Positions 13,589 to 51,461 are shown, counted from the first letter of the stretch. The stretch: DNA of 64,000 nucleotides from an uncultured Verrucomicrobiae bacterium (GCA_963762565.1 CAVXLD010000001.1:1088001-1152000); one strand, 5' to 3'. Notes: generated from the letters alone by a model not told the origin. Numbers and translations: made by a program.

Positions 13589-13595
13589 GAGCCTC

Positions 13596-20693: not shown

Positions 20694-22434
20694 ATGCTCA
20701 AACGATTATCTCTGTTAAATTTCAGATGCTTTGAGGATCATGAGATACCTGTTCGCTCGCGTACTATCATCGTAGGTCAGAATAACGCTGGAAAATCTAC
20801 AGTTGTCGAAGCTCTTCGCCTGGTATCACTGGTAACGGAAAGAGCCGGCGGGCTCCATTTCAAAGCGCCGCCGTCTTGGGCTGATTTACCGCGACGTTGT
20901 CGGGGACTGTCTCCATCCCTTCAAAGCATCGAAATTCGCAAAGAATCACTTTTTCACCGTTATGGAAGCCCGCCGGGCCTGATCAAGGCGGAATTTACTT
21001 CAGGGACGAGGATCGAGCTGTCGATCGGCCCCGAGGCTGCGATCTATGGGACAATTTACGATGAGAAGGGGGCTGTGATTTCGTCGTCCCAAAAGTTAAG
21101 ATCTGCTGGCATCCCTTCGATCAGTATTCTTCCACAGATTTCACCTTTAGCCGAATCTGAAACAATCCTTGGGAGGGAGTATGTTCGCGCCAATTTGGCG
21201 ACAGCCCGATCGTCCATTCACTTCAGGAATCAGCTGCACTATTATAGCGAGATTTTTCCTGAGTTTCGAAAGTTGGCGGAGCAATCGTGGCCAGGGCTTA
21301 AAATTCAACCTTTGGATTCCGGAAGAGGCATGCCGGCCCTTGATAACTTGAATCTAATTGTGAGAGACGGCGATTTTTCGGCGGAGGTCTCGTGGAGGGG
21401 GGCATGGAATGCAGATGTGGCTCCAAACGATGTGGTTCTTAGCCCGGACGGCGAATTCGAGAACTATCATTCTCGATGAACCGGACGTTTATATGCACGC
21501 CGATTTGCAGCGCCGCCTGATACGCTTGCTGAAGCTGGATGAGTCACGACAAATTATCATTGCCACTCATTCCGCCGAAATCATGGCCGAGGTTGAGGCA
21601 GATGAGGTCCTCCTAGTGGATCGAAAAAGGAGAGCTTCATCCTTTGCAGGATCTATGCCGACCGTCCAAAAGATCCTGGAGCACGTCGGCAGTGTTCACA
21701 ATTTGGCCTTTGCGAGGCTCGCTAATTCTAAAGTGTTGCTTTTGGTAGAGGGGAATGACGTCCCTTTCCTGAAGCGATTCCAAGATAAGATTTTCCCTCA
21801 AAGTAGACGGCCGATTGACACGATCCCGCATATACCGCTGGGGGGATGGTCTGGATGGCAATATGCGTTGGGAGTGGCAAAGTTTCTGAGGTCCGCATCA
21901 GACCACCGAGTCGCTCCAATTTGTATCCTCGACCGCGATTTTCACACCAGCGAAGAAATCGATACTCGATTAAAGCAAGCCAAAGAAGCGAACATAGAAC
22001 TGACGATTTGGAATCGGAAGGAGATCGAAAATTACCTTCTTGTCCCGGAAGCCATCGCCAGAGTTCTATGTAGGCGTTCGAAACGTGTCAAAGGAGTTGA
22101 CGCTGCCGAAATCGAAAAAGCGCTCGACGAAATTGCTGAGGGCATGAAGGACGACGTGCTCGATCGCTTTATTGAGTCCTTTCACGCAATTGATAAGGCG
22201 TCCGGCCCGGCAATGGCCAGCAAGCGCGCTAGAGAATACGCTCGCGAGAATTGGAACGGTTCTGGCCGATTGCGGCTGGTTGGTGGTAAGGAAGTTATAA
22301 GCGCTTTATCCGCTTGGGCACAGAATCGGTACAGCGTCTCGCTTTCTCCATTGGCAATCGCAGCTGAGCTTCGGCGAGAGGAGATAGACGAGGCGGTCGT
22401 TTCACTGATCTCTCGGATCGAGCAGCTCAATTAG
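20694..22434 (+). pseudogene. ABC-type ATPase plus TOPRIM-like nuclease (OLD-like), split by a +1 frameshift at a G6 run (21397-21402)
   Basis: ORF1 has Walker A GQNNAGKST; ORF2 has Walker B IILDEPD, IIATHS, TOPRIM LVEGND/ILDRD and EIENYL; removing one G fuses them into ~579 aa. Confidence 0.8.
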
Positions 22435-22537
22435 CGTGCGCGCCACAGTTCAGGGCATCCAGACTGGACTATCGACGTGTTTCCACTTCAGCTCTTTTTT
22501 CGCGGAGCGCTCTTTGTATGATAGTTTTTGAGCAGAA

Positions 22538-22699
22538 ATGGCGAAGAAGAAGAGTCCGCGCACGGCTGCTCTTGGCAGGCTAGGAGGCCTCAAGGGTGCG
22601 GCAAAAGGGATAAGGCTATGCCGACGCCAGGACTCCCGGCCAACGAACCGAGGCCGCAAGAAACGCAGTAAAAATCAGATGAGTCGAGGAGGGCCATGA
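22538..22699 (+). CDS. small basic KGG-motif protein, probably degenerate
   Basis: Manual translation MAKKKSPRTAALGRLGGLKGAAKG... resembles AxALGRxGGxKGG small proteins; 53 aa. Confidence 0.4.
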   Translation: MAKKKSPRTAALGRLGGLKGAAKGIRLCRRQDSRPTNRGRKKRSKNQMSRGGP

Positions 22700-22739
22700 A
22701 CCTAAGCGTAAACCCAATCCTCGCCAGAAAAGACATTTT

Positions 22740-23118
22740 ATGAAGCCGATCGTGATCCAACTTCAAGAAGATCTCACCATCGGCAATAAGACGATTGCCG
22801 AGCAACTTAGAACCGCAAAATTAATATCAGCAAAGCTTGAATTGCCATTAGTCGAAGATTGGATCCAACACGAGTTGGAGGGCTACCCACCCGACCCAAG
22901 GAAGTTGCCCAAATATCGATTTATTAGTGGCGGAGAGCTACAGTTCCGCAATCCGATGCACGGATGGATTCCGGCTATGGGAACGTCAGTAATTACCGTG
23001 CCTATCTTTCAACCGGTGGCGGAAATTGAAGCCTACAACGAAGGGGATCACTTATACCTCCAACCGGCAACTAAGTATCGGCTCACCGACCTACATGGAG
23101 ACGGTGGTTTGATGACAA
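22740..23118 (+). pseudogene. AbiTii-like domain protein, 3'-truncated
   Basis: QLRTAKLISAKLEL...WIQHELEGY...LPKYR...NPMHGWIP resembles the AbiTii N-terminus; the frame runs into the repeat motif at 23119. Confidence 0.7.
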
Positions 23119-23163
23119 GGGCCGAGAAACAGGGGGGGCCGAGAAACAGGGGTCGCGTCTATA

Positions 23164-23873
23164 CGGGCTGTTGCCCAATAGGTGCACTATTTGAATAAAG
23201 TTGCAGAGGGAATTCGTAGATTTTCGGTCGGTCTAGCTTGACGGAAGTATGATGGATTGGCTGCGTAGAAGCTTAATGAGGCGACGAACTAATTGCGCGA
23301 GAGAGTCGGCCAGCTCAGGGTCGGCCTGAGAGAGGTGTCTAGTGAGTTTTCTGAGATTCTGCACCGTGGCGATGAGCAAATCTTGGATAGCTTGCTTCCA
23401 AAGGCCGCGCCAGCGTGAGCGCTTCAACCCGTGACAATTAGCAGCATCGGCAAAACTGCGTTCCATGAGATGTTGGCGGCGTTTGAGGTCGCGCTTTGCC
23501 GCCTTGGAATTAGCGATCTTGCGCGCTTTTTCTATCAGCTCCTGGTCGCGATGCCGATGAATGGTGCGACCCGTGCGGGAGCGGGTACAGAAGGCTCGTA
23601 GTTTGCAGACCAGGCAAACCCCCATGGCAGTCACATATTCCCAGGTTAGGCGCTTTGGGTGCAAACGCCGGGGCTTCATGATCTGATTGGCCGGACAGCG
23701 GTAGGTATTGCTGTTTGGGTCGTAACAAAACTGTTCTTCAGAATAGATCCCTGCGCTAGAGCCCTTCCCTTTGATGGAGTCTCCTAAAGGCTTCACATGC
23801 GCCCGAATCCCTGATTTTTGACAACCAATCAGGTTGCTGACATTACCATAGCGGGCATCAGCAATCACGGTTC
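23164..23873 (-). mobile_element. divergent IS1182-family remnant (right end plus 3' part of transposase, 23233-23873)
   Basis: End CGGGCTGTTGCCCAAT; translation is clearly homologous to, but differs from, the C-terminal half of the 24353 transposase. Confidence 0.85.
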
Positions 23874-23901
23874 GGGCCGAGAAACAGGGGTCGCGTCTAT
23901 A

Positions 23902-24246
23902 GGGCGTGTTGCCCAATTAATAACCATTATAGTATTGCTTTGCTGGTTACAGATTTGATAGTGTATTGTTCCCATGATGGACGAAGAAGACTCGCAGGTT
24001 CCGATCTGGAGCTATCGGGTCAATTTAGATAAGCGGGTGCGGGACGATCATCCACTGCGGCGGATCAGGGCGGCGTTAGATTTGAGTTTTGTGCGTAAGG
24101 AGGTAGCGCACACTTATGGGCGAAGAGGCAACAAGTCGGTTCCGCCCGAAGTGATTGTCCGGATGATGTTGTTGTTGTTCTTGGATGATATCAAGAGCGA
24201 GCGGGAGCTGATGCGCATCATCCCTGAACGGCTGGATTACCTTTGG
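23902..24246 (+). mobile_element. 5' partial copy of the IS1182-family element
   Basis: Matches the first 345 bp of 24281-25893 (one substitution noticed); breaks after ...TACCTTTGG. Confidence 0.9.
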
Positions 24247-24280
24247 CCAGCGAGGCCGAGAAACAGGGGTCGCGTCTTTA

Positions 24281-25893
24281 GGGCGTGTTGCCCAATTAAT
24301 AACCATTATAGTATTGCTTTGCTGGTTACAGATTTGATAGTGTATTGTTCCCATGATGGACGAAGAAGACTCGCAGGTTCCGATCTGGAGCTATCGGGTC
24401 AATTTAGATAAGCGGGTGCGGGACGATCATCCACTGCGGCGGATCAGGGCGGCGTTAGATTTGAGTTTTGTGCGTAAGGAGGTAGCGCACACTTATGGGC
24501 GAAGAGGCAACAAGTCGGTTCCGCCCGAAGTGATTGTCCGGATGATGTTGTTGTTATTCTTGGATGATATCAAGAGCGAGCGGGAGCTGATGCGCATCAT
24601 CCCTGAACGGCTGGATTACCTTTGGTTTCTTGGCTATGGGCTAGACGATCAGATTCCCGACCACAGTGTGTTGAGCAAGGCGCGCAAGCGCTGGGGTAAA
24701 GAAGTGTTTGTCTCGCTATTTAGCCGGGTAGTGCAGCAGTGCGTGGAGGCTGGTCTGGTAGAAGGCCGTAAGATCCACGTGGATGCGAGCCTAGTGGAGG
24801 CCGATGCCAATCTGGGTTCAGTTAAGCCCCTGTCTGCGGAGACGCTCAATGCCATCGAGCAAACTGCCAAAGAGCAAGTGCAAAAGCTCGATGAACCCGA
24901 CCAAGACCAAGATCCGCCATCAGGGGACAGCGGCAGCGGCGGTTCTGCCATTGGCCAATACTCCAAAACCAATCGCCAGTTCCGCAGTACGACCGACCCG
25001 GATGCGACTCTAGTTCGACACGCCGGCCTAAAGAGCCGCTTACGCTATAAGACTCATCGAGTAGTCGACGATGCCCATGAGATCATCACCGCCGTAGAGA
25101 CCACCACCGGTGCGGTCGACGAAGCCTCGCAACTGTTGAGGCTCATTGAAGCTCATGAAGATACTACCGATCAAGCAGTGCGAACTGTGATTGCTGATGC
25201 GCGTTACGGCAGCGTCAGCAACCTGATTAGCTGTCAAAAAGCGGGGATTAAAGCCCATGTGAAGCTGCTGGGGGAGTCGATCCGAGGTAAGGGACGAAGC
25301 GAGGGCATTTATTCCGACGAGCATTTTAGATACGATGCACAGACTAATACCTATCTCTGTCCCGCCAAGCAGATCATGAAAGCCAGGCGCTTACACCCCA
25401 AGCGCTTGACCTGGGAATATGTCACCGCCAAGGGGACCTGTTTAGTGTGCAAGCTGCGCGCCTTGTGCACTCGTTCCCGCACCGGACGCACCATTCACCG
25501 CCATCGGGATCAAGCCTGGTTAGAAAAGGCTCGCAAAATTGCTAACTCCAAGGCTGCTAAAGCCGACCTTAAACGCCGCCAACATCTCATGGAAAGGAGC
25601 TTTGCCGACGCCGCCAATCGTCATGGGCTCAAGCGTTCTCGTTGGCGTGGACTTTGGAAGCAAGCTATCCAAGACTTACTCATTGCTACGGTACAGAACC
25701 TGAGAAAACTCCTCAGGCATCTCTCCCAAACCAACCCTGCGCTAGCCTATCGCCTTACTCAGTTGCTCCGCTGGCTCACCCGGCTCCTTCACCCGATTTC
25801 AACCTCCTTCTTGCCAAGCTAACCCTTCGCCAAACCTTCCAATTACTAACCCAAAATCCTCATACTAATTAGGCGCTATTGGGCAACAGCCCC
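24281..25893 (+). mobile_element. IS1182-family insertion sequence, copy 1 (1613 bp)
   Basis: 16-bp imperfect IRs GGGCGTGTTGCCCAAT / GGGGCTGTTGCCCAAT; flanks TTTA and TATA. Confidence 0.9.
24353..25822 (+). CDS. IS1182-family DDE transposase
   Basis: DHPLR...SERELM...IPDHS N-domain, HVDAS, TTDPDA, ADARY, Cys-rich insert, ERSFADA...GL.R.R.RG. Confidence 0.92.
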   Translation: MMDEEDSQVPIWSYRVNLDKRVRDDHPLRRIRAALDLSFVRKEVAHTYGRRGNKSVPPEVIVRMMLLLFLDDIKSERELMRIIPERLDYLWFLGYGLDDQIPDHSVLSKARKRWGKEVFVSLFSRVVQQCVEAGLVEGRKIHVDASLVEADANLGSVKPLSAETLNAIEQTAKEQVQKLDEPDQDQDPPSGDSGSGGSAIGQYSKTNRQFRSTTDPDATLVRHAGLKSRLRYKTHRVVDDAHEIITAVETTTGAVDEASQLLRLIEAHEDTTDQAVRTVIADARYGSVSNLISCQKAGIKAHVKLLGESIRGKGRSEGIYSDEHFRYDAQTNTYLCPAKQIMKARRLHPKRLTWEYVTAKGTCLVCKLRALCTRSRTGRTIHRHRDQAWLEKARKIANSKAAKADLKRRQHLMERSFADAANRHGLKRSRWRGLWKQAIQDLLIATVQNLRKLLRHLSQTNPALAYRLTQLLRWLTRLLHPISTSFLPS

Positions 25894-26064
25894 TATATAC
25901 AATACACAGAACGAACGGCTGTCTTGGTGGTAAAGAGATTCGTACGAACGGCTGTTTGCATCGACTATTCGGACAGCCTCACACCACTTCGATCAGTCCT
26001 GCCGTAGGTGCTGAATCATGGTTTCTGTCGGTCGGGGTTTAGTGTAAGGTATAGACGCGACCCC
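25894..26064 (+). mobile_element. MITE-like element copy B; body and right TIR, with the left TIR at 24266-24280 separated by the IS
   Basis: Highly similar to 30100-30268; ends TATAGACGCGACCCC followed by AATTCAAAGG. Confidence 0.8.
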
Positions 26065-41249: not shown

Positions 41250-43919
41250 TCATTCACTTCTCTGCCTCGCAGCATCGGCGATATCACGAGCCACGAGCGC
41301 GGTCCAGCCGGTCTGGTGGCTTGCGCCTAGACCTCGACCGGTCTCGCCGTGGAAATATTCGTGAAAGAGGACAAGTTCGCGCCAATGCGGATCAGCTGCG
41401 AATCGGAGATCGTCTCCGTGACACGGGCGCCGTCCTGCGGCATCCGGCAGAAAAATACTCGCCAACCGCGCACCAAGTTCGTTCACGACTCCTTGAAGAT
41501 TCATCATACGACCCGAACCAGTAGGACATTCCACCTGCAACTTATCGCCGTAAAAATGGTGGTACCGCTCCAGTGCCTCGATCAGCAAATGGTTGACAGG
41601 AAACCAAATCGGTCCGCGCCAATTCGAGTTGCCGCCGAAGAGGTGAGTGCGGGATTCGCCGGGATCATAGTCGACGCGATGCTCTACGCCTTCCGCTATA
41701 AAGACGCACGGACTTTTCTCGTGGAACTTCGATAGGGACCGGATTCCATAAGGCGAGAGAAACTCACTCTCGTCGAGCATATAACTCAGCAGGCGCTGCA
41801 AACGCTCGCGCGCCGGAATCGCCAGTAGAAATCGTTGACTGTCGCCGTGCTCGTAAAAGCTGATATTGTGAGCAAGATCGGGACGGTGGTTTATGAACCA
41901 GGCCGCCCGTTTGTAGAAACCTGGAAGTTTCTTGATTGTTTCCCCCTCCAGGACTTCGGTCGCGATCAATGGCAACAGTCCGACCAGGGAGCGTGTCTTG
42001 AGTGGGATGGCGCTCTGATCGGTCCGCAGCTGGTCGTAGTAAAAGCCGTCCTCTTCGCTCCAAAGCCCGCTGCCGCCGAGTTGGTTCATCGCATCTGCGA
42101 TCTGGACGAAGTGCTCGAGAAACTTCGATGCCATGTCCTCATAGGCCCGATAAATACGCAGTCCTTCGCCAACCGCCAGCTCCAGCGCCATCGAAAGCAT
42201 TGTGGCGCAGTAAAACGCCATCCAGGCGGTGCCATCGGCCTGCCGGAGGACGGCTCCGTTTGGCAAGACCTGAGAGCGATCGAACACGCCGATGTTATCC
42301 AACCCAAGGAAGCCGCCCGAAAACAGGTTCTCACCGTTCGCATCCTTACGGTTCACCCACCATGTGAAATTGAGCAGCAGTTTCTGAAAGACGCTTTCGA
42401 GAAAGTCGCGGTCCCGTGCGCCCCGCTCGCCCGAGATTTTATAGACGCGCCAGGCGGCCCAGGCATGCACTGGTGGGTTCACGTCCCCAAAGGCAAACTC
42501 GTACGCCGGAATCTGGCCGTTCGGATGCATGTACCATTCCCGCAACAGTAGAATCAATTGCTCCTTGGCGAACTCTGGGTCGATATGAGCCAGCGGGATC
42601 ATGTGGAATCCAAGGTCCCATGCGGCGAACCATGGATACTCCCACTTGTCCGGCATCGAAATGATGTCGCGGCTATAAAAATGACTCCAAGCTTTGTTGC
42701 GGCCCTGCAGCCGACCGGTGGGCGGCGCCGGACCGGACGGATCGCCGCTAAGCCAATCCTGAACGATGTAGTGATAGAATTGTTTGCTCCAGAGCAGCCC
42801 TGCGGCGGCTTGGCGTACCACGCCCTGCTCGATACTGTTAAACTTTATCCTGTACAGAGAGCCGTAGTACTCATCAGCCTCACGCATGCGTTCGGCGAAC
42901 ACCGCGTCAGAGTCCGGAGCCTTCGTCGAAGCCTCCTGCTCATTGAAAAGCCGCAAGGAGATGGTTTGCGTGGAATAGGATGGGATGCGCAAAACATAGT
43001 GGAGAGCTGCCTTCGTGCCGGTCTTTGCTGGATTGACGGCGCCGTCCTTACCGTGAATAACGTAGTCGTGAAATGCGTCCTTAAAAAACGCGTGGTCGGG
43101 CCCGAGATTGTACAAGCGGCGCGTGTTCGTGTCATTCTCTGTAAAGAGCGCAAGCGGACGGGGAGAATCCGGGGTCGTCCCGCTATCGAGCAGATAATGG
43201 CCGAGCGATTCATGATGGAGCGAGAGACTGTCGGCGCCTGCCCACGTAATCCTCGGTTTAGTGGCACTGCGTTCATCGATCGCGCCCCATGACCAAGTGT
43301 TGCGAAACCAGACGGTCGGTAGCAGGTGAAGCGTCGCTGCCTCGGCGCCGCGATTGGCCGCAGTGAGGCGGATCAGGATGTCGTTAGGCCCGTTTTTTGC
43401 ATACTCGGCCGTGATATCGAAATAACGACTGTCGTCGAATACGCCGGTATCCAAAATCTCGAATTCAGGATCGTCTTTGCCCCGGCGTCGATTCTCCGCC
43501 ACCAGCTGCGCGTATGGGTACTCGGCCTGCGGATATTTATAAAGCGCCTTCATGTAGGAGTAAGTCGGCGTCGCGTCGAGATAGAAGTATTGCTCCTTCA
43601 CATCCTCTCCATGATTCCCTTCCGGACCCGTCAAGCCGAAGAGGCGCTCTTTCAGAATCGGATCCTTGCCATTCCACAACGCCAATGCGAAGCAAAGCCG
43701 GCATTGACGATCGGCGATGCCGAGCAGTCCGTCTTCCCCCCATCGGTAGGACCGGCTTCGAGCATGATCGTGCGGGAAGTAATCCCAACAACCGCCGTCT
43801 GGGGAGTAGTCTTCGCGCACCGTGGCCCACTGGCGCTCCGATAGATAAGGTCCCCAACGTTTCCAGTTTGCCTCACGCTGCGCATCGGCTGTAAGACGCG
43901 CCTTCTCGGCATTGCTCAT
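41250..43919 (-). CDS. MGH1-like / GH63-type glucosidase
   Basis: WKRWGPYLSERQW, MPDKWEYPWFAAWDL, GGFLGLDNIG, GLGASHQTGWT; start trimmed to ATG 43919. Confidence 0.92.
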   Translation of the reverse strand: MSNAEKARLTADAQREANWKRWGPYLSERQWATVREDYSPDGGCWDYFPHDHARSRSYRWGEDGLLGIADRQCRLCFALALWNGKDPILKERLFGLTGPEGNHGEDVKEQYFYLDATPTYSYMKALYKYPQAEYPYAQLVAENRRRGKDDPEFEILDTGVFDDSRYFDITAEYAKNGPNDILIRLTAANRGAEAATLHLLPTVWFRNTWSWGAIDERSATKPRITWAGADSLSLHHESLGHYLLDSGTTPDSPRPLALFTENDTNTRRLYNLGPDHAFFKDAFHDYVIHGKDGAVNPAKTGTKAALHYVLRIPSYSTQTISLRLFNEQEASTKAPDSDAVFAERMREADEYYGSLYRIKFNSIEQGVVRQAAAGLLWSKQFYHYIVQDWLSGDPSGPAPPTGRLQGRNKAWSHFYSRDIISMPDKWEYPWFAAWDLGFHMIPLAHIDPEFAKEQLILLLREWYMHPNGQIPAYEFAFGDVNPPVHAWAAWRVYKISGERGARDRDFLESVFQKLLLNFTWWVNRKDANGENLFSGGFLGLDNIGVFDRSQVLPNGAVLRQADGTAWMAFYCATMLSMALELAVGEGLRIYRAYEDMASKFLEHFVQIADAMNQLGGSGLWSEEDGFYYDQLRTDQSAIPLKTRSLVGLLPLIATEVLEGETIKKLPGFYKRAAWFINHRPDLAHNISFYEHGDSQRFLLAIPARERLQRLLSYMLDESEFLSPYGIRSLSKFHEKSPCVFIAEGVEHRVDYDPGESRTHLFGGNSNWRGPIWFPVNHLLIEALERYHHFYGDKLQVECPTGSGRMMNLQGVVNELGARLASIFLPDAAGRRPCHGDDLRFAADPHWRELVLFHEYFHGETGRGLGASHQTGWTALVARDIADAARQRSE

Positions 43920-43977
43920 GCCGGTGTCAAACTCCCCTTCACCGCGAGTGCCCATCATGTAACGCGTGCGATACTGG

Positions 43978-45174
43978 TCACGCCGTTGTCGAGAAACCGC
44001 CTCGTCTTCCAACTTGCCCAGCGGCGGCACCGTTACCAACACCAGCACTCCGCTGCCCCAAGATCTGCTGACCATGCGCTTCGGCCCGCGCGAACACGAC
44101 TTTGTACACCTGGCAATAAGGATCCTTGGCTAACAGCGTTCCCTTCGCGCTGTAAGTTCGCACAGGACATCCGCCGTGGCAGATCGATAGGTAGCGGCAG
44201 GCCAGGCAGTCTTCATGCTCCATTAGATGCTTCGGCCGCTCCACGAAATCCTGCCGCGCTCGACTGGTTTTTAGCATCCGCGTAAGGTCGGGTTCGCGGA
44301 ACATATTACCAAAGAAGTATTCGGGATAGCTGGTAACCCAGCAATCGCACTGAGCAACCGTCCCTCTGGCGTCCACTGAGATAAATTGATTGGAGCAGTT
44401 CTCTTTCCAGATACAGGGTAAACGTGCCGGTCGGCCGACGAAGTGATCAATCAAGGCATCGAACGGACCCAGCGATACACCAGCGTCGTAGCCTTTCTGT
44501 ATCCAGATATCAAAGAGCTCACCGAGAAACCGGGCCAGTTCACCATTATCGAGTTGAAAGCCGCCTTCGACATCTTTCGCCGGGCCACCGGCAAACGGGG
44601 TATTCACCTGGAAATCATCGAGACCAAGGTCCTCGGTGAAGTACCGATAGAACCTCTCCGCGCCGGCTTCCAGACTGGCTTTATGGAGTACGGCAATGAC
44701 CCCGATCTTGATGCCTGCTTCGCGTGCTTCGTGCAGCCTTTTAGTCCAAAGTTTAGTGTAAGCTTCCGCACCGCTCTTGATAAGCTTCCGATGGACATTG
44801 GGATAGTCCATCGACGTTCCGACGGATCCGTTAAACATCCCATGGATTACCCTATTCCACGATGGTGAATAGCTAATAAGATTCGTTTGTAGATAGTGAA
44901 CGAATTTGCGTCCTTTCTCCGCGGCAGCGCGTCCCATAAGATTTCCAGCGTCTGCAAACCAGTCGGGACCCATAATCATCGCTTCTCCGCCCTGCCAATA
45001 GATCTCGCAAACTTCGATATTCTCATGTTCGAGATGGTCAAGCAGTCGCCGAGTTAACAACGGGAGCAACGCCGGTGAAAGTCGATGCGGTTCCTTGTGC
45101 TCAAAGCAGTAATCGCAGGCGACGTTGCACTCTGACGTCGGTAGGAGGATCACGCTGAAGACTCGTCCGTTCAT
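43978..45174 (-). CDS. radical SAM/SPASM-domain peptide maturase (anSME-like; candidate cyclophane synthase)
   Basis: CNVACDYC, WQGGE, LQTN; SPASM cysteines CIWKENC...QCDC...CLACRYLSICHGGCP...YC. Confidence 0.93.
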   Translation of the reverse strand: MNGRVFSVILLPTSECNVACDYCFEHKEPHRLSPALLPLLTRRLLDHLEHENIEVCEIYWQGGEAMIMGPDWFADAGNLMGRAAAEKGRKFVHYLQTNLISYSPSWNRVIHGMFNGSVGTSMDYPNVHRKLIKSGAEAYTKLWTKRLHEAREAGIKIGVIAVLHKASLEAGAERFYRYFTEDLGLDDFQVNTPFAGGPAKDVEGGFQLDNGELARFLGELFDIWIQKGYDAGVSLGPFDALIDHFVGRPARLPCIWKENCSNQFISVDARGTVAQCDCWVTSYPEYFFGNMFREPDLTRMLKTSRARQDFVERPKHLMEHEDCLACRYLSICHGGCPVRTYSAKGTLLAKDPYCQVYKVVFARAEAHGQQILGQRSAGVGNGAAAGQVGRRGGFSTTA

Positions 45175-45189
45175 CAGTAGGGACTCCGG

Positions 45190-46104
45190 TTATTCTACGG
45201 GCGACGCCAGGGGTCCAACCTTCGCCAGCTCCTCTGTTTGATCAGCACGATCTCGGTTGGCAAGCTCGTGACCCATCTCATCGGCAGCAGCCTTTATGGC
45301 GAAGAACAACTGTTTGACTCCTCCGCAATCGTAAGCGGGATCCGGCCACTTGAAGTATCCTTGGCAGATCTCTTGGAAAGGACAAGTCACACACTCGGCG
45401 TCTTGCTCCAGTAGGCGTCTAAACCAAGCCTCCACAAAAGTCGTGGACGAGAGATCCGATGACGGAGAACTGAAGCCGCCGGGTAATTCAAAGCCGACGC
45501 CCACTCCTCGACGCAGAAATAAAGCTGGGTCTTCTTCAAGAATCATCCAGAGCGAACCGTCGCCGGTGCCGCACATGGCAGCCAACACCGAATGGAAGAA
45601 CTCTACCGGCGCTTCCACCATCGGATCACGAAGGTAGAAGGTTACCGCCTCGGTCAATTCAATTAGTACTTCAGGAGATGGTTGCCCCGGCAGTAATCGC
45701 ACCGGCAGTCGCAATGCGATAGCCACCTTGACGGCTCTAAGAAACCCGGGCGAGGCAGGCATACTCACCCTGACGTCACGGACGGCAAAGACGTCGACCA
45801 GTCGATACAAATCGGAAAACTGCGAACCGGGATCCGTAATGAGGACATCCAGAGGAACATTCGATGTGCTTTGCGCCGCCGGGATCCAAGCATCCTGATC
45901 GCTGAGCAACTCCTCTACTTGGATCCATTGTAAGCTAGCCGGGGCATTACTAAGCCATTGGCTAAGTTCAGCCCGGCTCCTGACGATGGCGACAAATGGG
46001 CTCCCACCGTGGCCGGACGCTAAATCGGACCGCAAGAAAAGAATGGGCCAATCGGGTTCTAGCGGCGCGCTATTGTACCCATCATTTACCAGCGGTTGAT
46101 CCAT
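45190..46104 (-). CDS. hypothetical protein with SPASM-like Cys-rich C-terminus
   Basis: CVTCPFQEICQGYF...YDC; no CxxxCxxC; sits between precursor and rSAM genes; start uncertain. Confidence 0.75.
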   Translation of the reverse strand: MDQPLVNDGYNSAPLEPDWPILFLRSDLASGHGGSPFVAIVRSRAELSQWLSNAPASLQWIQVEELLSDQDAWIPAAQSTSNVPLDVLITDPGSQFSDLYRLVDVFAVRDVRVSMPASPGFLRAVKVAIALRLPVRLLPGQPSPEVLIELTEAVTFYLRDPMVEAPVEFFHSVLAAMCGTGDGSLWMILEEDPALFLRRGVGVGFELPGGFSSPSSDLSSTTFVEAWFRRLLEQDAECVTCPFQEICQGYFKWPDPAYDCGGVKQLFFAIKAAADEMGHELANRDRADQTEELAKVGPLASPVE

Positions 46105-46433
46105 GAACCTCCGCCGCCATAGTACCGGCGGTTAATCCAGCCGCCACCACCCCCGCCGCGACCATTCAACCAGCCACCACCGCCACCCCAGCCTCCCCGG
46201 CCGTTGATCCAGCCGCCGACGCCCCCGCCAGCTCGCCGATTCACCCAGGCGCCAGCCTGAGCCGCCGGTGGAGATGCCAGCCAAGCGCCGCCGATTATTG
46301 CCGCCGCAATTGCGGCCCCTGACCATTTGCCCAGGCTTTGTAGAAACCACCGGCGTCCGAGCAGTTCCTGATTGTCACCTGAGCCGGTTGTTCCAGCAGA
46401 GTGCTCACTTTTCATAACCGTAAAATCGGCCAT
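46086..46433 (-). CDS. putative RiPP precursor: Tat signal plus Gly-rich core with five W-x-N motifs
   Basis: GRRWFLQ twin-Arg motif, hydrophobic helix, AQA site; core contains WVN, WIN, WLN, WIN, WIN. Confidence 0.85.
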   Translation of the reverse strand: MADFTVMKSEHSAGTTGSGDNQELLGRRWFLQSLGKWSGAAIAAAIIGGAWLASPPAAQAGAWVNRRAGGGVGGWINGRGGWGGGGGWLNGRGGGGGGWINRRYYGGGGSWINRW

Positions 46434-46436
46434 TTG

Positions 46437-46931
46437 TTAGGCGTCTTCCTTGCCCGTTGCCCCTGTCAACGTTGAGAAATGCATGGCAGCGATCCGCCAT
46501 TTGCCGGCCTCTTTTGCGACGGTAAGGGATAGGTTGATGGGGTAGGTGAACTCTTTCCCAGCCTTTTCGCCCGAGATATTTCCGGACGTCATCAGCCAAC
46601 CCATGTCAGTGCCAACCGCCGCTATTTTGAATTGGTATTCGTACTTTTGTTTTCCCTCGTCGAAACCCTGGAAGAAGTGCTGATAAGCAACTTTGATCTC
46701 ATCCGGACCGGACCAGATCTCTCCGGGACCGGTTCCCATGATAGCGGCCTTTTCAGTCAGGCATGCCATAACCCCCTCGAGGTTATGGTTAGTGAAGGCT
46801 TCATCGTGCGCCTTTAATAAAGCGCGAATCGGCTCTATCTCTGGATTTTCGGATGTCTCCGCATTCACTGCGGTAGGCAGCGTGGCAGCAATGCTAACGA
46901 CCCCGGCGATAATTGCTTCTCTTCGGTTCAT
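46437..46931 (-). CDS. Tat-signal NTF2/SnoaL-like protein
   Basis: MNRREAII signal with VNA site; IRALL...AF...NLEGVM; C-terminal KEAGKWRIAAMHFS. Confidence 0.85.
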   Translation of the reverse strand: MNRREAIIAGVVSIAATLPTAVNAETSENPEIEPIRALLKAHDEAFTNHNLEGVMACLTEKAAIMGTGPGEIWSGPDEIKVAYQHFFQGFDEGKQKYEYQFKIAAVGTDMGWLMTSGNISGEKAGKEFTYPINLSLTVAKEAGKWRIAAMHFSTLTGATGKEDA

Positions 46932-47424
46932 AACATCATTTTCTGGCGATCCCGAAAGTGTTTCTCGTTCGCAGTGGCCGATTCCTTAATCGAAAACGAC
47001 TGCATCATCCTGTTCTTGAGCCGGCTGGGGACCGCTTTGCAAGATTTCCCCAAGAAGGCGCGCCCTCCAATATCTATTGCAGCGCGTTGTAAGAGCTTTT
47101 GTGTATGGCAAAAGAGGCTCAGATTTTGACAACTTTCTAAACTCGAATACACGCTTATGTCCGTAAGAACATATGTGTGGCACTGAATCGTAGACTCGTT
47201 TTCGATTACAATCGCGTAGCGTACGCCAAAGATGATCGACGCAGAGAATCCGCTCTCTGTTGCAGAATTGGTGAGACTCACCGAACACGCAGGAATCCGC
47301 CGCGGAACTGCGGGATAGGACTAGGGCCTAATATCCGGTACGCAGCCGGAATAGTACGACGCTACCAGTTCGGTTCCGACCGAGGTCGAAGCTATAAAAT
47401 CTTGAAGTTTCAGACATAGTCGCC

Positions 47425-47796
47425 ATGCTGGCGGGAGATTTTGTTGCAACGATGGAACCTCCCGCCTTACCCAACGTAAAGGGACGTTCATCGAAACGGC
47501 GGTGGAAAAGTTTTGCCTGCTATCTTCCTCTGGCAACCATCGGACTGCAGATTGCCTGGGGCGTATTACTTTTCGTGGCGTTGATCTTCGCAGTCGGCGA
47601 TACTCCCTACAGAAACACCCCAAGTAATCAGCATCTATTCGAATTCATCGGGGCATTGCCCGCGATAGCAGGATCGATTTTCGGAGTAATCGCGATGGTC
47701 TGTCGTTGGCCACAAAACCCGGTCGATTGGATAGGTCTCATCGGGGGCACTATCGTTTGTTCTGTTCTTGCTATCTGGCTCGGAGGTTTTTTGTAA
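47425..47796 (+). CDS. small membrane protein (three TM)
   Basis: Three hydrophobic segments in 123 aa. Confidence 0.55.
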   Translation: MLAGDFVATMEPPALPNVKGRSSKRRWKSFACYLPLATIGLQIAWGVLLFVALIFAVGDTPYRNTPSNQHLFEFIGALPAIAGSIFGVIAMVCRWPQNPVDWIGLIGGTIVCSVLAIWLGGFL

Positions 47797-47821
47797 CTTT
47801 AAGTACCAATTGTTGATGACA

Positions 47822-48046
47822 ATGGACAAAGACGTAGAACACTTAAAGCTACTCTCGATTTTCTATTATATCGTGGGCGGGCTGGCCTGCTTTTGTGGAC
47901 TGTTATGGATACTATATATCGTATCCGGCGTCATTCTGGTAGTCGCGTCGGGATCTATGGCAAGTGACGATCGCATGGGAGCATCTATCGGCGGCGTCGC
48001 GGCCGCTATCGTCGGTCGTCTTGCGACTCTAGCGTGCGGTAGTTGA
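47822..48046 (+). pseudogene. probable truncated membrane protein
   Basis: EHLKLLSIFYYIVGGL N-terminus, ends within the second TM. Confidence 0.45.
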
Positions 48047-48174
48047 CTACCTGGCATTCTTTGTTCCGGCTGCCGGAACTATTGTCTAGATGGCGTCGCC
48101 GAGCTTCCGCGATCCGACGAACAATGTTGTCGTTCCTCGCACCAGGCATATCAGAACACAACTTCCGGCACTGC

Positions 48175-49080
48175 GCAGTCACCGATCTAATGGAACCGGA
48201 TCGCATTGTGATTGGATCGAACAGCCAGCGGGCGTTAGCGATTATGGAAAAGGTTTACGCGCCGTTTTCGGCGCCAATTATGGTGACGGATGTCAAGAGC
48301 GCTGAGTTGATAAAGCATGCGGCCAACTCGTTTCTTGCGCTCAAAATTTCTTATATCAACGCGGTGTCCGCAATTTGTGAGACCACTGGAGCAGATATTG
48401 AACAGGTCGCAGAAGGGATTGGGGCGGACAAACGAATCGGAAGGAGCTTTTTCAGCGCCGGTCTGGGATATGGAGGGTCTTGCTTTCCGAAGGACCTTGC
48501 CGCCTTCATTGCCATCAGCGAACAAATTGGCGAACCCTTCCAGCTCCTGCGCGAGGTCCAGAGAATAAACCGCCAGCAGCGCGAACGCTTCGTAAAGAGA
48601 TTACGCGACACTTTGTGGGTGTTAAAAGAGAAGCGAATCGCAGTTTGGGGTCTTACCTTTAAACCACATACCGACGACGTTCGCAGTTCGGTGGCCGTCG
48701 ATCTGGTAAACGATCTTATTCGGGAAGGCGCCCTCGTGACCGCCTACGACCCAAAAGGCAACCAAAAGGTTCAAGAGCTCAATCTTTGTCCAGGAGTTCA
48801 TCTGGCCAAGTCCGCGCTCGAGGCTGTGCAGGATGCTGAAGCATTAGTCTTAGCAACGGAATGGCCCGAGTTCAGTGAAGCGGATCTCACAGAGGTATAT
48901 CAGCGGATGCATATGCCAATCGTTTTCGACGGAAGGAATCTATTCGATCCGGCTACCATGCGAGATCTCGGTTTCCAATACTTCGGCATCGGGCGTCCGT
49001 TGGACGACCCCGGCGACAGTAACCGGAATAGTAACGGCACAAGCACGCGTGGCGACCTCGTTGCCCTCCGCTCTAACTGA
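48175..49080 (+). pseudogene. ugd: UDP-glucose/GDP-mannose dehydrogenase, 5'-truncated
   Basis: PDRIVIG, SAELIKHAANSFLA.KIS, GYGGSCFPKD, GLTFKPHTDD present; N-terminal GxGYVG Rossmann half absent. Confidence 0.85.
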
Positions 49081-49625: not shown

Positions 49626-49792
49626 TGTGATCTGCTCCTCCAGAACAACGAGCTTTGCAATATGGGTTTTCAGGCTGGGACAAGGTCTCGAAGTGATTGT
49701 GGCGCCGCCTAACTTTCACCAACCGAGTTTCTTTAAACCATTTCCACTGAACGACACTTGATTTGGCGTGCTCAGCCGGGGTTACGTCTATA

Positions 49793-51405
49793 GGGGCTGT
49801 TGCCCAATAGCGCCTAATTAGTATGAGGATTTTGGGTTAGTAATTGGAAGGTTTGGCGAAGGGTTAGCTTGGCAAGAAGGAGGTTGAAATCGGGTGAAGG
49901 AGCCGGGTGAGCCAGCGGAGCAACTGAGTAAGGCGATAGGCTAGCGCAGGGTTGGTTTGGGAGAGATGCCTGAGGAGTTTTCTCAGGTTCTGTACCGTAG
50001 CAATGAGTAAGTCTTGGATAGCTTGCTTCCAAAGTCCACGCCAACGAGAACGCTTGAGCCCATGACGATTGGCGGCGTCGGCAAAGCTCCTTTCCATGAG
50101 ATGTTGGCGGCGTTTAAGGTCGGCTTTAGCAGCCTTGGAGTTAGCAATTTTGCGAGCCTTTTCTAACCAGGCTTGATCCCGATGGCGGTGAATGGTGCGT
50201 CCGGTGCGGGAACGAGTGCACAAGGCGCGCAGCTTGCACACTAAACAGGTCCCCTTGGCGGTGACATATTCCCAGGTCAAGCGCTTGGGGTGTAAGCGCC
50301 TGGCTTTCATGATCTGCTTGGCGGGACAGAGATAGGTATTAGTCTGTGCATCGTATCTAAAATGCTCGTCGGAATAAATGCCCTCGCTTCGTCCCTTACC
50401 TCGGATCGACTCCCCCAGCAGCTTCACATGGGCTTTAATCCCCGCTTTTTGACAGCTAATCAGGTTGCTGACGCTGCCGTAACGCGCATCAGCAATCACA
50501 GTTCGCACTGCTTGATCGGTAGTATCTTCATGAGCTTCAATGAGCCTCAACAGTTGCGAGGCTTCGTCGACCGCACCGGTGGTGGTCTCTACGGCGGTGA
50601 TGATCTCATGGGCATCGTCGACTACTCGATGAGTCTTATAGCGTAAGCGGCTCTTTAGGCCGGCGTGTCGAACTAGAGTCGCATCCGGGTCGGTCGTACT
50701 GCGGAACTGGCGATTGGTTTTGGAGTATTGGCCAATGGCAGAACCGCCGCTGCCGCTGTCCCCTGATGGCGGATCTTGGTCTTGGTCGGGTTCATCGAGC
50801 TTTTGCACTTGCTCTTTGGCAGTTTGCTCGATGGCATTGAGCGTCTCCGCAGACAGGGGCTTAACTGAACCCAGATTGGCATCGGCCTCCACTAGGCTCG
50901 CATCCACGTGGATCTTACGGCCTTCTACCAGACCAGCCTCCACGCACTGCTGCACTACCCGGCTAAATAGCGAGACAAACACTTCTTTACCCCAGCGCTT
51001 GCGCGCCTTGCTCAACACACTGTGGTCGGGAATCTGATCGTCTAGCCCATAGCCAAGAAACCAAAGGTAATCCAGCCGTTCAGGGATGATGCGCATCAGC
51101 TCCCGCTCGCTCTTGATATCATCCAAGAATAACAACAACATCATCCGGACAATCACTTCGGGCGGAACCGACTTGTTGCCTCTTCGCCCATAAGTGTGCG
51201 CTACCTCCTTACGCACAAAACTCAAATCTAACGCCGCCCTGATCCGCCGCAGTGGATGATCGTCCCGCACCCGCTTATCTAAATTGACCCGATAGCTCCA
51301 GATCGGAACCTGCGAGTCTTCTTCGTCCATCATGGGAACAATACACTATCAAATCTGTAACCAGCAAAGCAATACTATAATGGTTATTAATTGGGCAACA
51401 CGCCC
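49793..51405 (-). mobile_element. IS1182-family insertion sequence, copy 2 (inverted)
   Basis: Same length, ends and translations as copy 1; flanks TATA and TTGA do not match each other. Confidence 0.92.
49864..51333 (-). CDS. IS1182-family DDE transposase
   Basis: Protein identical to 24353-25822. Confidence 0.92.
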   Translation of the reverse strand: MMDEEDSQVPIWSYRVNLDKRVRDDHPLRRIRAALDLSFVRKEVAHTYGRRGNKSVPPEVIVRMMLLLFLDDIKSERELMRIIPERLDYLWFLGYGLDDQIPDHSVLSKARKRWGKEVFVSLFSRVVQQCVEAGLVEGRKIHVDASLVEADANLGSVKPLSAETLNAIEQTAKEQVQKLDEPDQDQDPPSGDSGSGGSAIGQYSKTNRQFRSTTDPDATLVRHAGLKSRLRYKTHRVVDDAHEIITAVETTTGAVDEASQLLRLIEAHEDTTDQAVRTVIADARYGSVSNLISCQKAGIKAHVKLLGESIRGKGRSEGIYSDEHFRYDAQTNTYLCPAKQIMKARRLHPKRLTWEYVTAKGTCLVCKLRALCTRSRTGRTIHRHRDQAWLEKARKIANSKAAKADLKRRQHLMERSFADAANRHGLKRSRWRGLWKQAIQDLLIATVQNLRKLLRHLSQTNPALAYRLTQLLRWLTRLLHPISTSFLPS

Positions 51406-51461
51406 TTGAGAAAGCATCCGCAAGCCCGCGGACCTAATCTGCCGCCCCAGATACGGGGGCG

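Follow-up and report, generated by a model that had tools for sequence, protein, structure and literature searches.

On the minus strand of a 64,000-nucleotide stretch of DNA from an uncultured Verrucomicrobiae bacterium (the window), four packed genes encode an NTF2-like protein, a precursor peptide, a partner protein and a radical-SAM/SPASM enzyme. On balance, this cassette is probably a self-contained unit for the production of a ribosomally made, enzyme-modified peptide of the triceptide (three-residue cyclophane) kind. Analogy with described enzymes and export signals makes a triceptide-like system the favored reading, with a product that would leave the cell via a Tat-type signal. New chemistry and antibiotics are actively being drawn from radical-SAM cyclophane peptides (triceptides, darobactin, dynobactin), and little is understood of how such peptides get out of the cell when no exporter is dedicated to them. 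The peptide and the partner are covered by no curated model, the enzyme stays under every curated family cutoff, and the family is large and present in several phyla.

The ORF listing of positions 43978-46931 contains the four genes separated, from gene 1 to gene 4, by a gap of 3 nt, an overlap of 19 nt and a gap of 15 nt, in exact agreement with the tight packing given in the preliminary description. The features are:

46437..46931, minus strand: gene 1, NTF2-like protein (ORF, 164 aa)
46086..46433, minus strand: gene 2, precursor peptide (ORF, 115 aa; 109 aa if the start is Met7, at 46415)
46254..46433, minus strand: precursor leader and putative twin-arginine signal, aa 1-60 (motifs and conservation), with an acidic n-region, RRWFL (46341-46355), W37-S38 (GKWS), a Gly/Ala-rich h-region and an AQA site
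46089..46253, minus strand: precursor core, aa 61-115 (Gly-rich, 55 aa long, with W-[VIL]-N five times and WINRW at the C-terminus)
45190..46104, minus strand: gene 3, partner (304 aa), apparently a radical-SAM/SPASM-like pseudo-enzyme without SAM-cluster motif
45325..45393, minus strand: conserved partner cysteines C238-x2-C241-x5-C247-x12-C260, which may bind one Fe-S cluster or a metal
43978..45174, minus strand: gene 4, radical-SAM/SPASM peptide maturase (398 aa)
45106-45129, minus strand: CxxxCxxC of the enzyme
about 44113-44415, minus strand: SPASM region of the enzyme

The precursor might start at Met7, because this Met column is kept in at least 90 % of 37 aligned precursors and the closest relative among the matches listed is 108 aa long. 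Downstream of the enzyme lies a GH63-like gene, the longest ORF of which (41250-44075) overlaps the 3' end of the enzyme gene; its likely start is MMGTRGE at about 43958, 20 nt past the enzyme stop.

The cassette is not a chance assembly, since each family has hundreds of relatives in the database (precursor 725, partner 796, enzyme 977) and the gene order is conserved. The relatives of the partner form 374 clusters at 50 % identity. Cassettes occur in Verrucomicrobiota, Chromatiaceae, Acidobacteriota and deltaproteobacteria, and the order NTF2-like protein, precursor, partner, enzyme is found in 38 of 41 well-flanked genome loci. The preliminary description had named two grounds for refutation that sequence data can address. 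The first, enzyme homologues without a link to W-x-N peptides, is countered by these 38 loci with all four genes. In a wider set of 59 loci, the partner was counted 59 times, the enzyme 56 times, the NTF2-like protein 52 times and the precursor 47 times (among ORFs of at least 90 aa), and these four were the only gene families common to more than 14 of the loci. Among the neighbor families of the same 59 loci, no peptidase or transporter is conserved beside the cassette, in agreement with the preliminary description, which had noted that no peptidase or ABC exporter is present. Three of the 41 well-flanked loci carry incomplete cassettes: L029 is without the NTF2-like gene and the precursor, L048 lacks the NTF2-like gene and keeps the other three, and in L055 the partner has decayed and the enzyme is missing. 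The topology of the radical-SAM tree tracks the phyla, which fits long retention of the cassette.

The division of the precursor into a 60-aa N-terminal part with GRRWFLQ, ending in AQA, and a 55-aa core with five W-x-N motifs agrees with the sequence; the core motifs are, in order, WVN, WIN, WLN, WIN and WIN. The window precursor is without a Pfam or NCBIfam match. In the alignment of 37 locus precursors, the W and N columns of the core are invariant. All 120 listed relatives (of 725) carry W-x-N repeats and 112 of them have five, while the number is 3-9 in 51 of the 54 precursors detected at the loci and varies between lineages. The cores of the listed relatives consist of 46 % G, 13 % R, 12 % W and 10 % N, with no Cys and 0.9 % Ser; their net charge is about +6 to +7, and acidic residues are present in only 2 of the 120. 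Arg follows W-x-N in 414 of 596 motifs, at a position that varies (R, G, H, W, A). As in the triceptide class, the gene for a peptide with aromatic-x-x core motifs thus lies beside that for a radical-SAM/SPASM enzyme, which is a neighbor in 56 of 59 loci. According to excerpts of a review, OscB joins Trp-C7 to the C-beta of Asn or Asp, from i to i+2, and XncB, like OscB, makes Trp-to-Asn C-beta links at i, i+2 (PMC11002830); W-x-N had rightly been taken for a triceptide-type crosslink motif.

The product of gene 4 contains the Pfam domains Radical_SAM and SPASM and scores 54 bits against the SPASM domain model TIGR04085 of NCBIfam (cutoff 27), in line with its first assignment. Twelve cysteines (C16, 20, 23, 254, 260, 276, 278, 323, 326, 332, 336 and 354) are invariant in 23 of 23 family members; they include the CxxxCxxC motif (C16/C20/C23) and SPASM cysteines for two auxiliary clusters. 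All cyclophane-maturase models are matched, with E-values of 1e-15 to 1e-40. The NCBIfam family scores are all below the cutoffs: anSME (TIGR03942) with 141 bits (cutoff 349), DynA with 138 (450), DarW with 130 (650), DarE with 116 (650) and GrrM (TIGR04261) with 74 (310). In 23 of 23 enzyme-family members, DynA, DarW and DarE are next-best after anSME, and all four score higher than TIGR04261, which is matched at E 6.5e-25 or weaker. The only distinct solved proteins that match the enzyme by sequence at E up to 0.001 are anSME (E 2.7e-23) and ChlB (E 2.2e-11). On the bit scores, membership of GrrM/OscB, of DynA, DarE or DarW, and of anSME was rejected. For anSME there is the further point that a substrate of its type is absent, since the cores are without Cys and almost without Ser. 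The enzyme is therefore not a member of the GrrM/OscB family, which the preliminary description had named as its example of triceptide maturases; anSME, DynA and DarW/DarE all score higher. That no maturase cutoff is reached, and that the top score goes to anSME, an enzyme with another reaction, counts against the favored reading.

These scores bear on the possibility that the cassette is a plain GrrA/GrrM (OscA/OscB) triceptide system outside the cyanobacteria. Such a system would account for the resemblance of the Gly-rich W-x-N core to OscB substrates (PMC11002830, excerpts), for the enzyme match to TIGR04261 (E 1e-20) and for the fact that 20 of 37 precursors touch the GrrA model TIGR04260 at E up to 10 (best 0.004). 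However, the best precursor score is 17.7 bits (cutoff 31), the precursor matches cover the repeats only (positions about 63-118) and never the leader, and the window peptide is without a TIGR04260 match at E up to 10. With the partner and its family matching no NCBIfam or Pfam model, and with the enzyme score quoted above, this explanation is very improbable.

It is also conceivable, though rather unlikely, that the cassette and the exported peptide are as described here and that the enzyme performs a different reaction: a bond between Trp and the next Arg, an ether or C-N linkage of the daropeptide type, epimerization or beta-hydroxylation of Asn, or a modification of Gly. The enzyme does score best to anSME and DynA/DarW/DarE rather than to triceptide synthases, Arg is the prevalent residue after W-x-N, and Trp-Arg links made by radical-SAM enzymes are reported for WprB (PMC11851443). 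Yet W and N are the invariant pair of each repeat whereas the next residue varies, W-x-N is a proven triceptide motif (PMC11002830, excerpts), and the near lack of Cys and Ser in the cores rules out the anSME reaction.

Gene 3 had been set down as encoding an unknown protein. The partner matches no Pfam or NCBIfam model, and neither the Pfam domains SPASM or Radical_SAM nor the CxxxCxxC motif of the SAM cluster were found in any of the 103 sequences of its family. An AlphaFold2 model made with these 103 sequences (pLDDT 90.9, pTM 0.86) was most similar in Foldseek to ChlB (9gmc/9gm3; E 1.1e-5, 338 columns, TM 0.53/0.45, of which 0.53 is a moderate value) and next to anSME (4k39, E 7.7e-4). A first profile comparison of partner and enzyme gave a probability of 14 % only; hhalign of the two families gave 81 % (E 1.2e-5), collinear with the C-terminal half of the enzyme. 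In this comparison C238, C241, C247 and C260 of the partner align with C323, C326, C332 and C354 of the enzyme. The first three are present in 103 of 103 family members and C260 in 102, and the pattern is carried by 98 of 99 near-full-length members. Because it combines a ChlB/anSME-like fold in the model with four retained cysteines and no CxxxCxxC, the partner looks like a pseudo-radical-SAM/SPASM protein. Its domain is naturally fused to Radical_SAM domains in four of nine long relatives scanned, and these fusions with other modifying enzymes suggest a reusable recognition module.

The N-terminal part of the precursor appears, from its sequence, to be a putative Tat-type export signal in place of the usual leader. 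In the 37 locus precursors, R28, F30, W37 and S38 are invariant and R27 (kept in at least 90 %), L31, G35 and A60 nearly so, and RR-x-F-[LFIM] and G-x-WS are both present in 120 of 120 listed relatives. Loss of the RR motif among precursor homologues, the second ground for refutation named in the preliminary description, was thus not observed. The distance from RR to the cleavage site is about 35 aa; it spans an h-region of about 25 aa that is weakly hydrophobic (mean Kyte-Doolittle 0.5-0.8). By a heuristic search, a small-x-small site directly precedes the first Trp in all 120 listed relatives and all 37 locus precursors, with a basic residue near it in only 26 and 20 of them, respectively. 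RR-x-F-L, h-region and small-x-small, the elements of a Tat signal, are thus all present at the level of motifs. Matches to curated TAT models fall on the RR region and stay under threshold: TIGR01409 was matched by 6 of 37 locus precursors (best 16.6 bits, cutoff 16.7), TIGR02811 by 8 and PF10518 by 3. The window precursor matched none of the curated TAT-signal models, and no tat genes are located within the 64-kb window. The Tat consensus does not include W-S after the RR motif, and the invariant W37-S38 therefore suggests a role of the leader in enzyme recognition, either in addition to export or in its place.

In another, unlikely reading, the N-terminal region is not a Tat signal at all. 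It would then be an ordinary leader for recognition, a signal for Sec or a membrane anchor that stays uncleaved, with RR-x-F-L serving recognition by the enzyme or the partner. The sub-cutoff TAT-model matches, their absence from the window peptide and the GKWS motif are in keeping with this. Furthermore, the published RiPPs with an export signal that were found use Sec (bufferins) or lipoprotein signals only (PMC12452194, PMC13056109, excerpts), and ChlB binds its own leader directly, to judge from the title of PDB entry 9gm3. In favor of a Tat-type signal, four phylum-level groups share RR-x-F-L, the long h-region has only weak hydrophobicity, small-x-small comes right before the first Trp, no other exporter or peptidase is conserved, and the neighboring NTF2-like protein is predicted to be exported.

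The latter protein, correctly recognized as NTF2-like at the outset, matches SnoaL_3 (E 1.1e-13) and DUF4440 (E 7.4e-9) of Pfam and stays below the cutoff of the NCBIfam SgcJ/EcaC model (31 of 34 bits). Its N-terminus is hydrophobic and signal-like in all full-length copies, from which export of the protein itself is predicted; the signal looks Sec-type, since copies from outside Verrucomicrobiota have not retained RR. The conserved positions of the protein are MGxGPGE, W, N and H.S. The small subunit of quinohemoprotein amine dehydrogenase is crosslinked by a radical-SAM enzyme, and by comparison the cassette product might be a crosslinked small subunit or ligand of the periplasmic NTF2-like protein rather than a free natural product. 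This is improbable, albeit with several points in its favor. The NTF2-like gene, with its pocket-like conserved residues, is the first of the cassette, upstream of the precursor, in 52 of 59 loci. For a RiPP, the core with its five repeats varies unusually little in architecture. Enzyme identity among 120 listed relatives (of 977) amounts to 72-100 %, the enzyme tree follows the phyla, and the QhpD model finds 14 of 23 members of the enzyme family (E up to 1e-10). Against it, L048 does without the NTF2-like gene, and repeat number differs from lineage to lineage.

In the favored reading of a triceptide-like peptide with a Tat-type signal, the 115-aa precursor would be synthesized in the cytoplasm. 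The enzyme, which has all the cysteines for three Fe-S clusters, would abstract a hydrogen at the Asn beta-carbon of every motif and bond this carbon to the indole of the Trp at position i-2. As many as five small rings, connected by glycine linkers, could be formed in this way in the window peptide and 3-9 in its relatives, each with a mass change of -2 Da. This chemistry is proposed because W and N are invariant, the enzyme cysteines are kept, ChlB is matched and OscB and XncB set a precedent. The partner, probably a dead paralogue of the enzyme type with the same fold, no SAM cluster and one remaining four-cysteine site, would bind the enzyme, the leader or both as a subunit without catalytic activity. 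Tat proofreading chaperones (TorD, DmsD, NapD) are cytoplasmic proteins that bind a twin-arginine leader until maturation is complete, and the partner may, by analogy, retain the leader until the rings have been made. The leader would double as Tat-type export signal, and once the modified peptide is outside, signal peptidase I would cleave it behind small-x-small and so free a product some 50 aa long that carries a charge near +6. Export along this route is proposed because of RR-x-F-L, the weakly hydrophobic h-region, small-x-small, the lack of a conserved transporter or peptidase and the predicted export of the NTF2-like protein. The latter, exported on its own signal, could bind the peptide in the periplasm, protect it or process it further.

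A more speculative and rather unlikely extension is that the cassette couples maturation to Tat quality control. The dead paralogue, with its one remaining Fe-S site, would then be a dedicated leader chaperone that hands the precursor over to the Tat translocon once all Trp-Asn rings are in place and not before. The exported, strongly cationic poly-cyclophane product, paired with the co-exported NTF2-like protein, would be a conserved component of the periplasm or envelope and not an antibiotic. If true, a Tat-routed RiPP and a pseudo-radical-SAM export gatekeeper would each be the first of their kind. The constant architecture of the product hints at a physiological role and not at warfare. 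Already in the favored reading, the family would add a cluster-less radical-SAM/SPASM paralogue as an obligatory partner and a twin-arginine-type signal as a leader; in the literature searched, only Sec and lipoprotein signals were found in the latter role, and a triceptide precursor with a twin-arginine-type leader was not encountered.

Several known systems share features with the cassette. GrrA/GrrM, also named OscA/OscB (TIGR04260/TIGR04261; Nguyen et al. 2020, as cited in PMC11002830), is a glycine-rich-repeat triceptide system. GrrA/OscA resembles the cassette in having a Gly-rich repetitive core with Trp-x-Asn beside a radical-SAM/SPASM enzyme. Unlike it, the cassette has the RR-x-F-L signal-like leader, the putative pseudo-radical-SAM partner and the NTF2-like protein with its predicted export, its enzyme and precursor both miss the family cutoffs, and the likeness of the precursors is limited to the repeats. 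anSME acts in the cytoplasm on a client bearing an export signal. It gave the highest HMM score and the best PDB sequence match of the cassette enzyme (TIGR03942; PDB 4k36-4k39). DynA, DarW and DarE are, like the cassette enzyme, peptide-crosslinking radical-SAM/SPASM enzymes, and they act on Trp. Dynobactin and darobactin clusters include dedicated transporters. Their precursors are short and carry a single motif, whereas the cassette core is ~50 aa long with multiple repeats, and no transporter is conserved. The 3-CyFEs and the daropeptide maturases are said to have a common origin (PMC12912966, excerpts). ChlB/ChlA (PDB 9gm3, 9gmc) matches the cassette enzyme by sequence and the partner by structure; ChlB works as one active enzyme and, going by the entry title, binds the leader of its own substrate, whereas the cassette combines an active enzyme with a cluster-less paralogue.

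TorD, DmsD and NapD bear no sequence or fold relation to the partner, the fold of which is radical-SAM/SPASM-like, and the comparison with them is by analogy only. Bufferins and oxazolins, which are MNIO-modified and carry a Sec signal, and DAG-RiPPs, which carry a lipoprotein signal, are comparable in another respect (PMC12452194, PMC13056109, excerpts); the words Tat and twin-arginine occur in neither of these papers. Membership of the bufferin type was rejected for the cassette, which is without MNIO (DUF692) and DUF2063 domains and the cores of which are without Cys. As far as the excerpts go, bufferins and DAG-RiPPs depend on MNIO acting on Cys with DUF2063-type partners, whereas the cassette has a radical-SAM enzyme, Trp-x-Asn and a twin-arginine-type signal. 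What bufferins share with the cassette is only the logic of an export signal as leader: in these systems a general export signal replaces the leader, the precursor is modified before it leaves the cytoplasm, and neither an exporter nor a peptidase is set aside for it, all of which would apply to the cassette in the reading favored here.

The four minus-strand genes named in the preliminary description, with their 3-nt gap, 19-nt overlap and 15-nt gap, were recovered in the ORF listing at the following positions:

46437-46931, minus strand: NTF2-like protein, 164 aa, Pfam SnoaL_3/DUF4440
46086-46433, minus strand: precursor peptide, 115 aa, without Pfam or NCBIfam match
45190-46104, minus strand: partner protein, 304 aa, without Pfam or NCBIfam match
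43978-45174, minus strand: enzyme, 398 aa, Radical_SAM and SPASM

The Pfam match bears out the assignment of the first gene product as NTF2-like, and the layout ascribed to the precursor was found in its sequence: 60 N-terminal residues that contain GRRWFLQ and end in AQA, followed by a 55-aa core with five W-x-N motifs (WVN, WIN, WLN, WIN, and WIN). Translation of the precursor may start at Met7, since at least 90 % of the aligned precursors share this Met and the nearest relative has 108 aa. Downstream of the enzyme gene lies a GH63/MGH1-like glycoside hydrolase ORF (41250-44075, minus strand) with a likely start at about 43958; this gene probably begins some 20 nt past the enzyme stop, without overlapping the enzyme gene. 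It may be co-transcribed with the cassette in the window, but was rejected as part of the system because it recurs in only one of 59 cassette loci, on the opposite strand. Promoter and terminator scans gave signals at or below shuffle expectation, and no Rfam match was obtained in 43000-48500. Out of frame, the GC-rich DNA of the glycine repeats yields shadow ORFs with many Arg, Trp, and Cys codons, e.g., at 46132-46350 on the minus strand. In some database entries, such as the partner relative P0113, a shadow ORF is joined to the N-terminus of the partner, which is an annotation artefact.

Database searches returned 796 relatives of the partner out of 3318 candidates, 977 of the enzyme out of 8000, and 725 of the precursor out of 3009; the few named sources were Verrucomicrobiota (Chthoniobacterales and Terrimicrobiaceae). 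A genome collection was scanned with the partner alignment; from 94 pattern matches, 59 loci were confirmed. By record title, Verrucomicrobiota account for 35 of these and Pseudomonadota for 15, mostly Chromatiaceae, with Thiorhodococcus minor DSM 11518 and Thioalkalicoccus limnaeus Um2 as isolates among them; four are from Deltaproteobacteria/Desulfobulbaceae, three from Acidobacteriota, one is labelled Dormiibacterota, and one is without a group label. When the window proteins were compared with all locus ORFs, order and strand (NTF2-like, precursor, partner, enzyme) proved to be constant, and the four-gene order held in the genome search: all four genes are present in 38 of the 41 well-flanked loci, i.e., those with at least 1000 nt upstream and at least 1250 nt downstream of the partner. 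The remaining 18 of the 59 loci are cut by contig ends.

Each of the three well-flanked exceptions is of a different kind. The verrucomicrobial locus L029 lacks the NTF2-like gene and the precursor: at 5000-7000 it carries the partner and the enzyme, with no W-x-N precursor or NTF2-like gene upstream, and its precursor may be encoded elsewhere or may have been lost. In L048, the NTF2-like gene is absent. L055 is a second copy from the same MAG as L010 and looks like a decaying duplicate, in which (6564-7805) the NTF2-like gene is intact, the precursor has six repeats, the partner is split over several ORFs, and the enzyme is absent. All-against-all clustering of the neighbourhood ORFs of at least 90 aa in the 59 loci showed that only the four cassette families and their antisense shadow ORFs occur in more than 14 loci: the partner family was found in 59, that of the enzyme in 56, the NTF2-like family in 52, and the precursor family in 47. 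No peptidase or transporter is conserved beside the cassette in these loci. A maximum-likelihood tree of the enzyme was built from 45 rows (the window and 44 loci), ORFs without CxxxCxxC or shorter than 340 aa after trimming being excluded. Each phylum is confined to one side of a well-supported branch, a pattern that fits long retention of the cassette after few transfers. A tblastn search of 72,556 plasmid records gave no match to the partner.

The window itself is ordinary verrucomicrobial chromosomal DNA, which encodes a nitrile hydratase and an AcrB-type pump and contains a malonate decarboxylase operon; no tat genes are found within its 64 kb. The cassette is situated in 23.9 kb bracketed by two identical inverted insertion-sequence copies. 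This bracketed segment could be movable or invertible as a unit; the cassette as such is chromosomal, and elsewhere it is conserved along lineages. The surrounding features are the following:

8080-15475, plus strand: complete-looking malonate decarboxylase operon (alpha subunit, CitG-like, carboxyltransferase, MdcE, MdcG, acyltransferase)
20694-23198, plus strand: defence-like genes adjoining insertion-sequence remnants
20694-21479 and 21409-22434, plus strand: AAA_15/AAA_21 ATPase, apparently split
22740-23198, plus strand: AbiTii-domain ORF, after the split ATPase
about 23277-24246: degraded third insertion-sequence copy
24275-25900 and 49786-51411, inverted: insertion-sequence copies, 1626 nt each, 100 % identical, with a 489-aa DDE_Tnp_1_6/DUF772 transposase
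48043-49080, plus strand: UDP-glucose/GDP-mannose dehydrogenase ORF, central and C-terminal domains only

The dehydrogenase ORF is probably a truncated gene, because its N-terminal NAD-binding domain is missing and an insertion sequence is nearby.

A precursor was detected in 54 of the 59 loci, and 51 of these peptides carry three to nine W-x-N motifs; the other three (L009, L033, and L054) are truncated or frameshifted. An alignment was made of the window peptide and 36 of the 54 locus precursors, from which truncated, frameshifted, or fused ORFs and near-duplicates were omitted. In these 37 sequences, R28, F30, W37, and S38 of the leader and the W/N pairs of the core are invariant, with R27, L31, G35, and A60 conserved to at least 90 %. 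Conservation of the twin-arginine motif, on which the preliminary description had staked its export proposal, was evident among the 120 precursor relatives listed, all of which have RR-x-F-[LFIM], G-x-WS, and a small-x-small site ahead of the first Trp. Exactly five W-x-N motifs are present in 112 of these 120. Of their 596 motifs, 576 have V or I in the middle, and the motif is followed by R in 414 cases and by G in 171. Their cores consist of 46 % Gly, 13 % Arg, 12 % Trp, 10 % Asn, and 0.9 % Ser, and contain no Cys.

Whether the leader is a Tat signal or a leader of another kind has to be weighed on several properties of this region. Besides the conservation of the RR motif, the TAT signal model TIGR01409 matched the RR region of six of the 37 precursors, the best at 16.6 bits and so below the cutoff of 16.7; TIGR02811 (8 of 37) and PF10518 (3 of 37) gave weak signals on the same region. 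The n-region is acidic and, by heuristic estimate, the h-region spans about 25 residues of low hydrophobicity (mean Kyte-Doolittle 0.5-0.8), with about 35 residues between the RR pair and the predicted cleavage site. The window peptide was matched by none of TIGR01409, TIGR02811, PF10518, and the GrrA/OscA1 model TIGR04260. The exact cleavage point is ambiguous because small-x-small sites overlap. The predicted mature peptide has about 50 aa and a net charge of +6 to +7 by the same heuristic, and acidic residues occur in it in only two of the 120 relatives listed.

Pfam Radical_SAM (22 bits) and SPASM (17.9 bits) both matched the enzyme below their gathering scores (29.5 and 21.5), and the NCBIfam SPASM domain model passed its cutoff of 27 with 54 bits. 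The CxxxCxxC motif is kept (C16, C20, and C23) and, together with nine further cysteines, is invariant in all 23 enzyme relatives, a complement that would be enough for three Fe-S clusters. The NCBIfam maturase models all scored below their cutoffs:

Scores of the enzyme with NCBIfam models
anSME (anaerobic sulfatase maturase): 141 bits, cutoff 349
DynA: 138 bits, cutoff 450
DarW: 130 bits, cutoff 650
DarE: 116 bits, cutoff 650
GrrM/OscB: 74 bits, cutoff 310
YhhB: 67 bits, cutoff 445
AmcB: 62 bits, cutoff 425
XyeB: 60 bits, cutoff 450
FxsB: 56 bits, cutoff 370

The first four are also the best by E-value over the 23 aligned family members, each matching all 23, and the only two solved proteins matched by the enzyme sequence are anSME (E 2.7e-23) and the triceptide synthase ChlB (E 2.2e-11). 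Judged by these scores and matches, the enzyme appears to form a separate family within the anSME-like SPASM group, to which the cyclophane and daropeptide maturases also belong, and the likeness to GrrM/OscB proposed earlier does not extend to membership. Plain membership of the cassette in the GrrA/GrrM (OscA/OscB) system could draw on TIGR04260, which matched 20 of the 37 precursors, but both proteins fell short of the family cutoffs, the best precursor match (E 0.004) reaching 17.7 bits against 31. The TIGR04260 matches are confined to the repeat part of the model.

The third gene product, first described as an unknown protein, could be given an affiliation by its fold, profile match, and cysteine pattern. 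A first model, based on 19 sequences, was of poor quality (pLDDT 62), and a structural search with it found no match at E up to 0.001 and nothing but generic TIM barrels; a confident model from 103 sequences (pLDDT 90.9, pTM 0.86) took its place. In an exhaustive profile search, E values up to 0.001 were obtained for 374 representative clusters, 271 of which had E up to 1e-10. The top structural match of the second model is ChlB (9gmc/9gm3; E 1.1e-5, probability 1.0, TM 0.53/0.45, 338 columns), followed by anSME (4k39, E 7.7e-4); five matches reach E 0.001, and the rest are generic TIM barrels at E 0.01 or worse. Partner profiles gave no meaningful match to PDB sequences. Profile-profile comparison of the partner with the enzyme family gave a probability of 14 % at first and later of 81 % (E 1.2e-5), in an alignment collinear with the C-terminal half of the enzyme. 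Partner residues C238, C241, C247, and C260, present in 103, 103, 103, and 102 of the 103 family members, stand opposite enzyme C323, C326, C332, and C354; enzyme C336 is without a counterpart. Going by the anSME structure, these four positions would be the ligands of one auxiliary cluster. CxxxCxxC and the Pfam SPASM and Radical_SAM domains are found in none of the 103 members, and an atlas annotation of SPASM on 17 % of one related cluster was thus not confirmed at the sequence level.

Nine long partner relatives were scanned, four of which are fused to a Radical_SAM domain, with the partner domain first in P0448, P0478, and P0499 and last in P0405, where it forms the C-terminal part, after a different radical-SAM domain. 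P0435 and P0444 combine the partner domain with DUF483, with or without a SAM-dependent methyltransferase, and in the other three no further domain was seen. The ChlB/anSME-like modelled fold, the absent CxxxCxxC, and the Radical_SAM fusions point to the partner being a radical-SAM/SPASM-like pseudo-enzyme that travels with modifying enzymes, putatively as an enzyme subunit and/or leader binder. The fusions to DUF483, methyltransferase, and a different radical-SAM domain suggest that the partner domain is a reusable module for other modification systems.

All full-length NTF2-like copies have a signal-like hydrophobic N-terminus. As the RR of the Verrucomicrobiota proteins (MNRREA, or MTRKEA) is not retained in other groups, this signal is likelier to be of the Sec than of the Tat type. 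Positions conserved to at least 90 % comprise MGxGPGE, one Trp, one Asn, and an H.S motif. Co-occurrence and location would agree with a periplasmic protein that binds, protects, or further processes the peptide; in a rival reading, the peptide would be a subunit or ligand of the NTF2-like protein. In the mechanism proposed here, the enzyme would install Trp-Asn cyclophanes in the cytoplasm, assisted by the pseudo-enzyme partner. The modified peptide would be exported by way of the putative Tat-type leader and cleaved by signal peptidase I, after which it would act alongside the NTF2-like protein in the periplasm.

NCBIfam release 20 and Pfam hold no model that captures the precursor or partner, nor one that captures the enzyme above cutoff. 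In one paper, export signals on RiPP precursors are called highly unusual and experimentally shown only for the Sec-dependent bufferins (PMC12452194), and RiPPs with lipoprotein signals were reported in 2026 (PMC13056109). Neither Tat nor twin-arginine appears in these texts. The literature searched contained no Tat or signal peptide tied to a radical-SAM, SPASM, or triceptide RiPP, nor a glycine-rich radical-SAM RiPP from Verrucomicrobia. The papers that first described triceptides (Nguyen 2020; Sugiyama 2022) and their supplements lay outside this literature and may already list this cluster type. According to PMC12912966, triceptide and daropeptide maturases have a common origin, and characterised triceptides are cut directly before the first cyclophane motif. 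The rival that the enzyme performs a different reaction on the same peptide has to be set between its DynA, DarW, and DarE scores and the linkages made by two known maturases. OscB joins Trp-C7 to the C-beta of Asn or Asp, and XncB joins Trp-C6 to the C-beta of Arg or Asn, in each case at positions i and i+2, as described in PMC11002830. This i, i+2 linkage matches the invariant W-x-N of the precursors of the present cassette.
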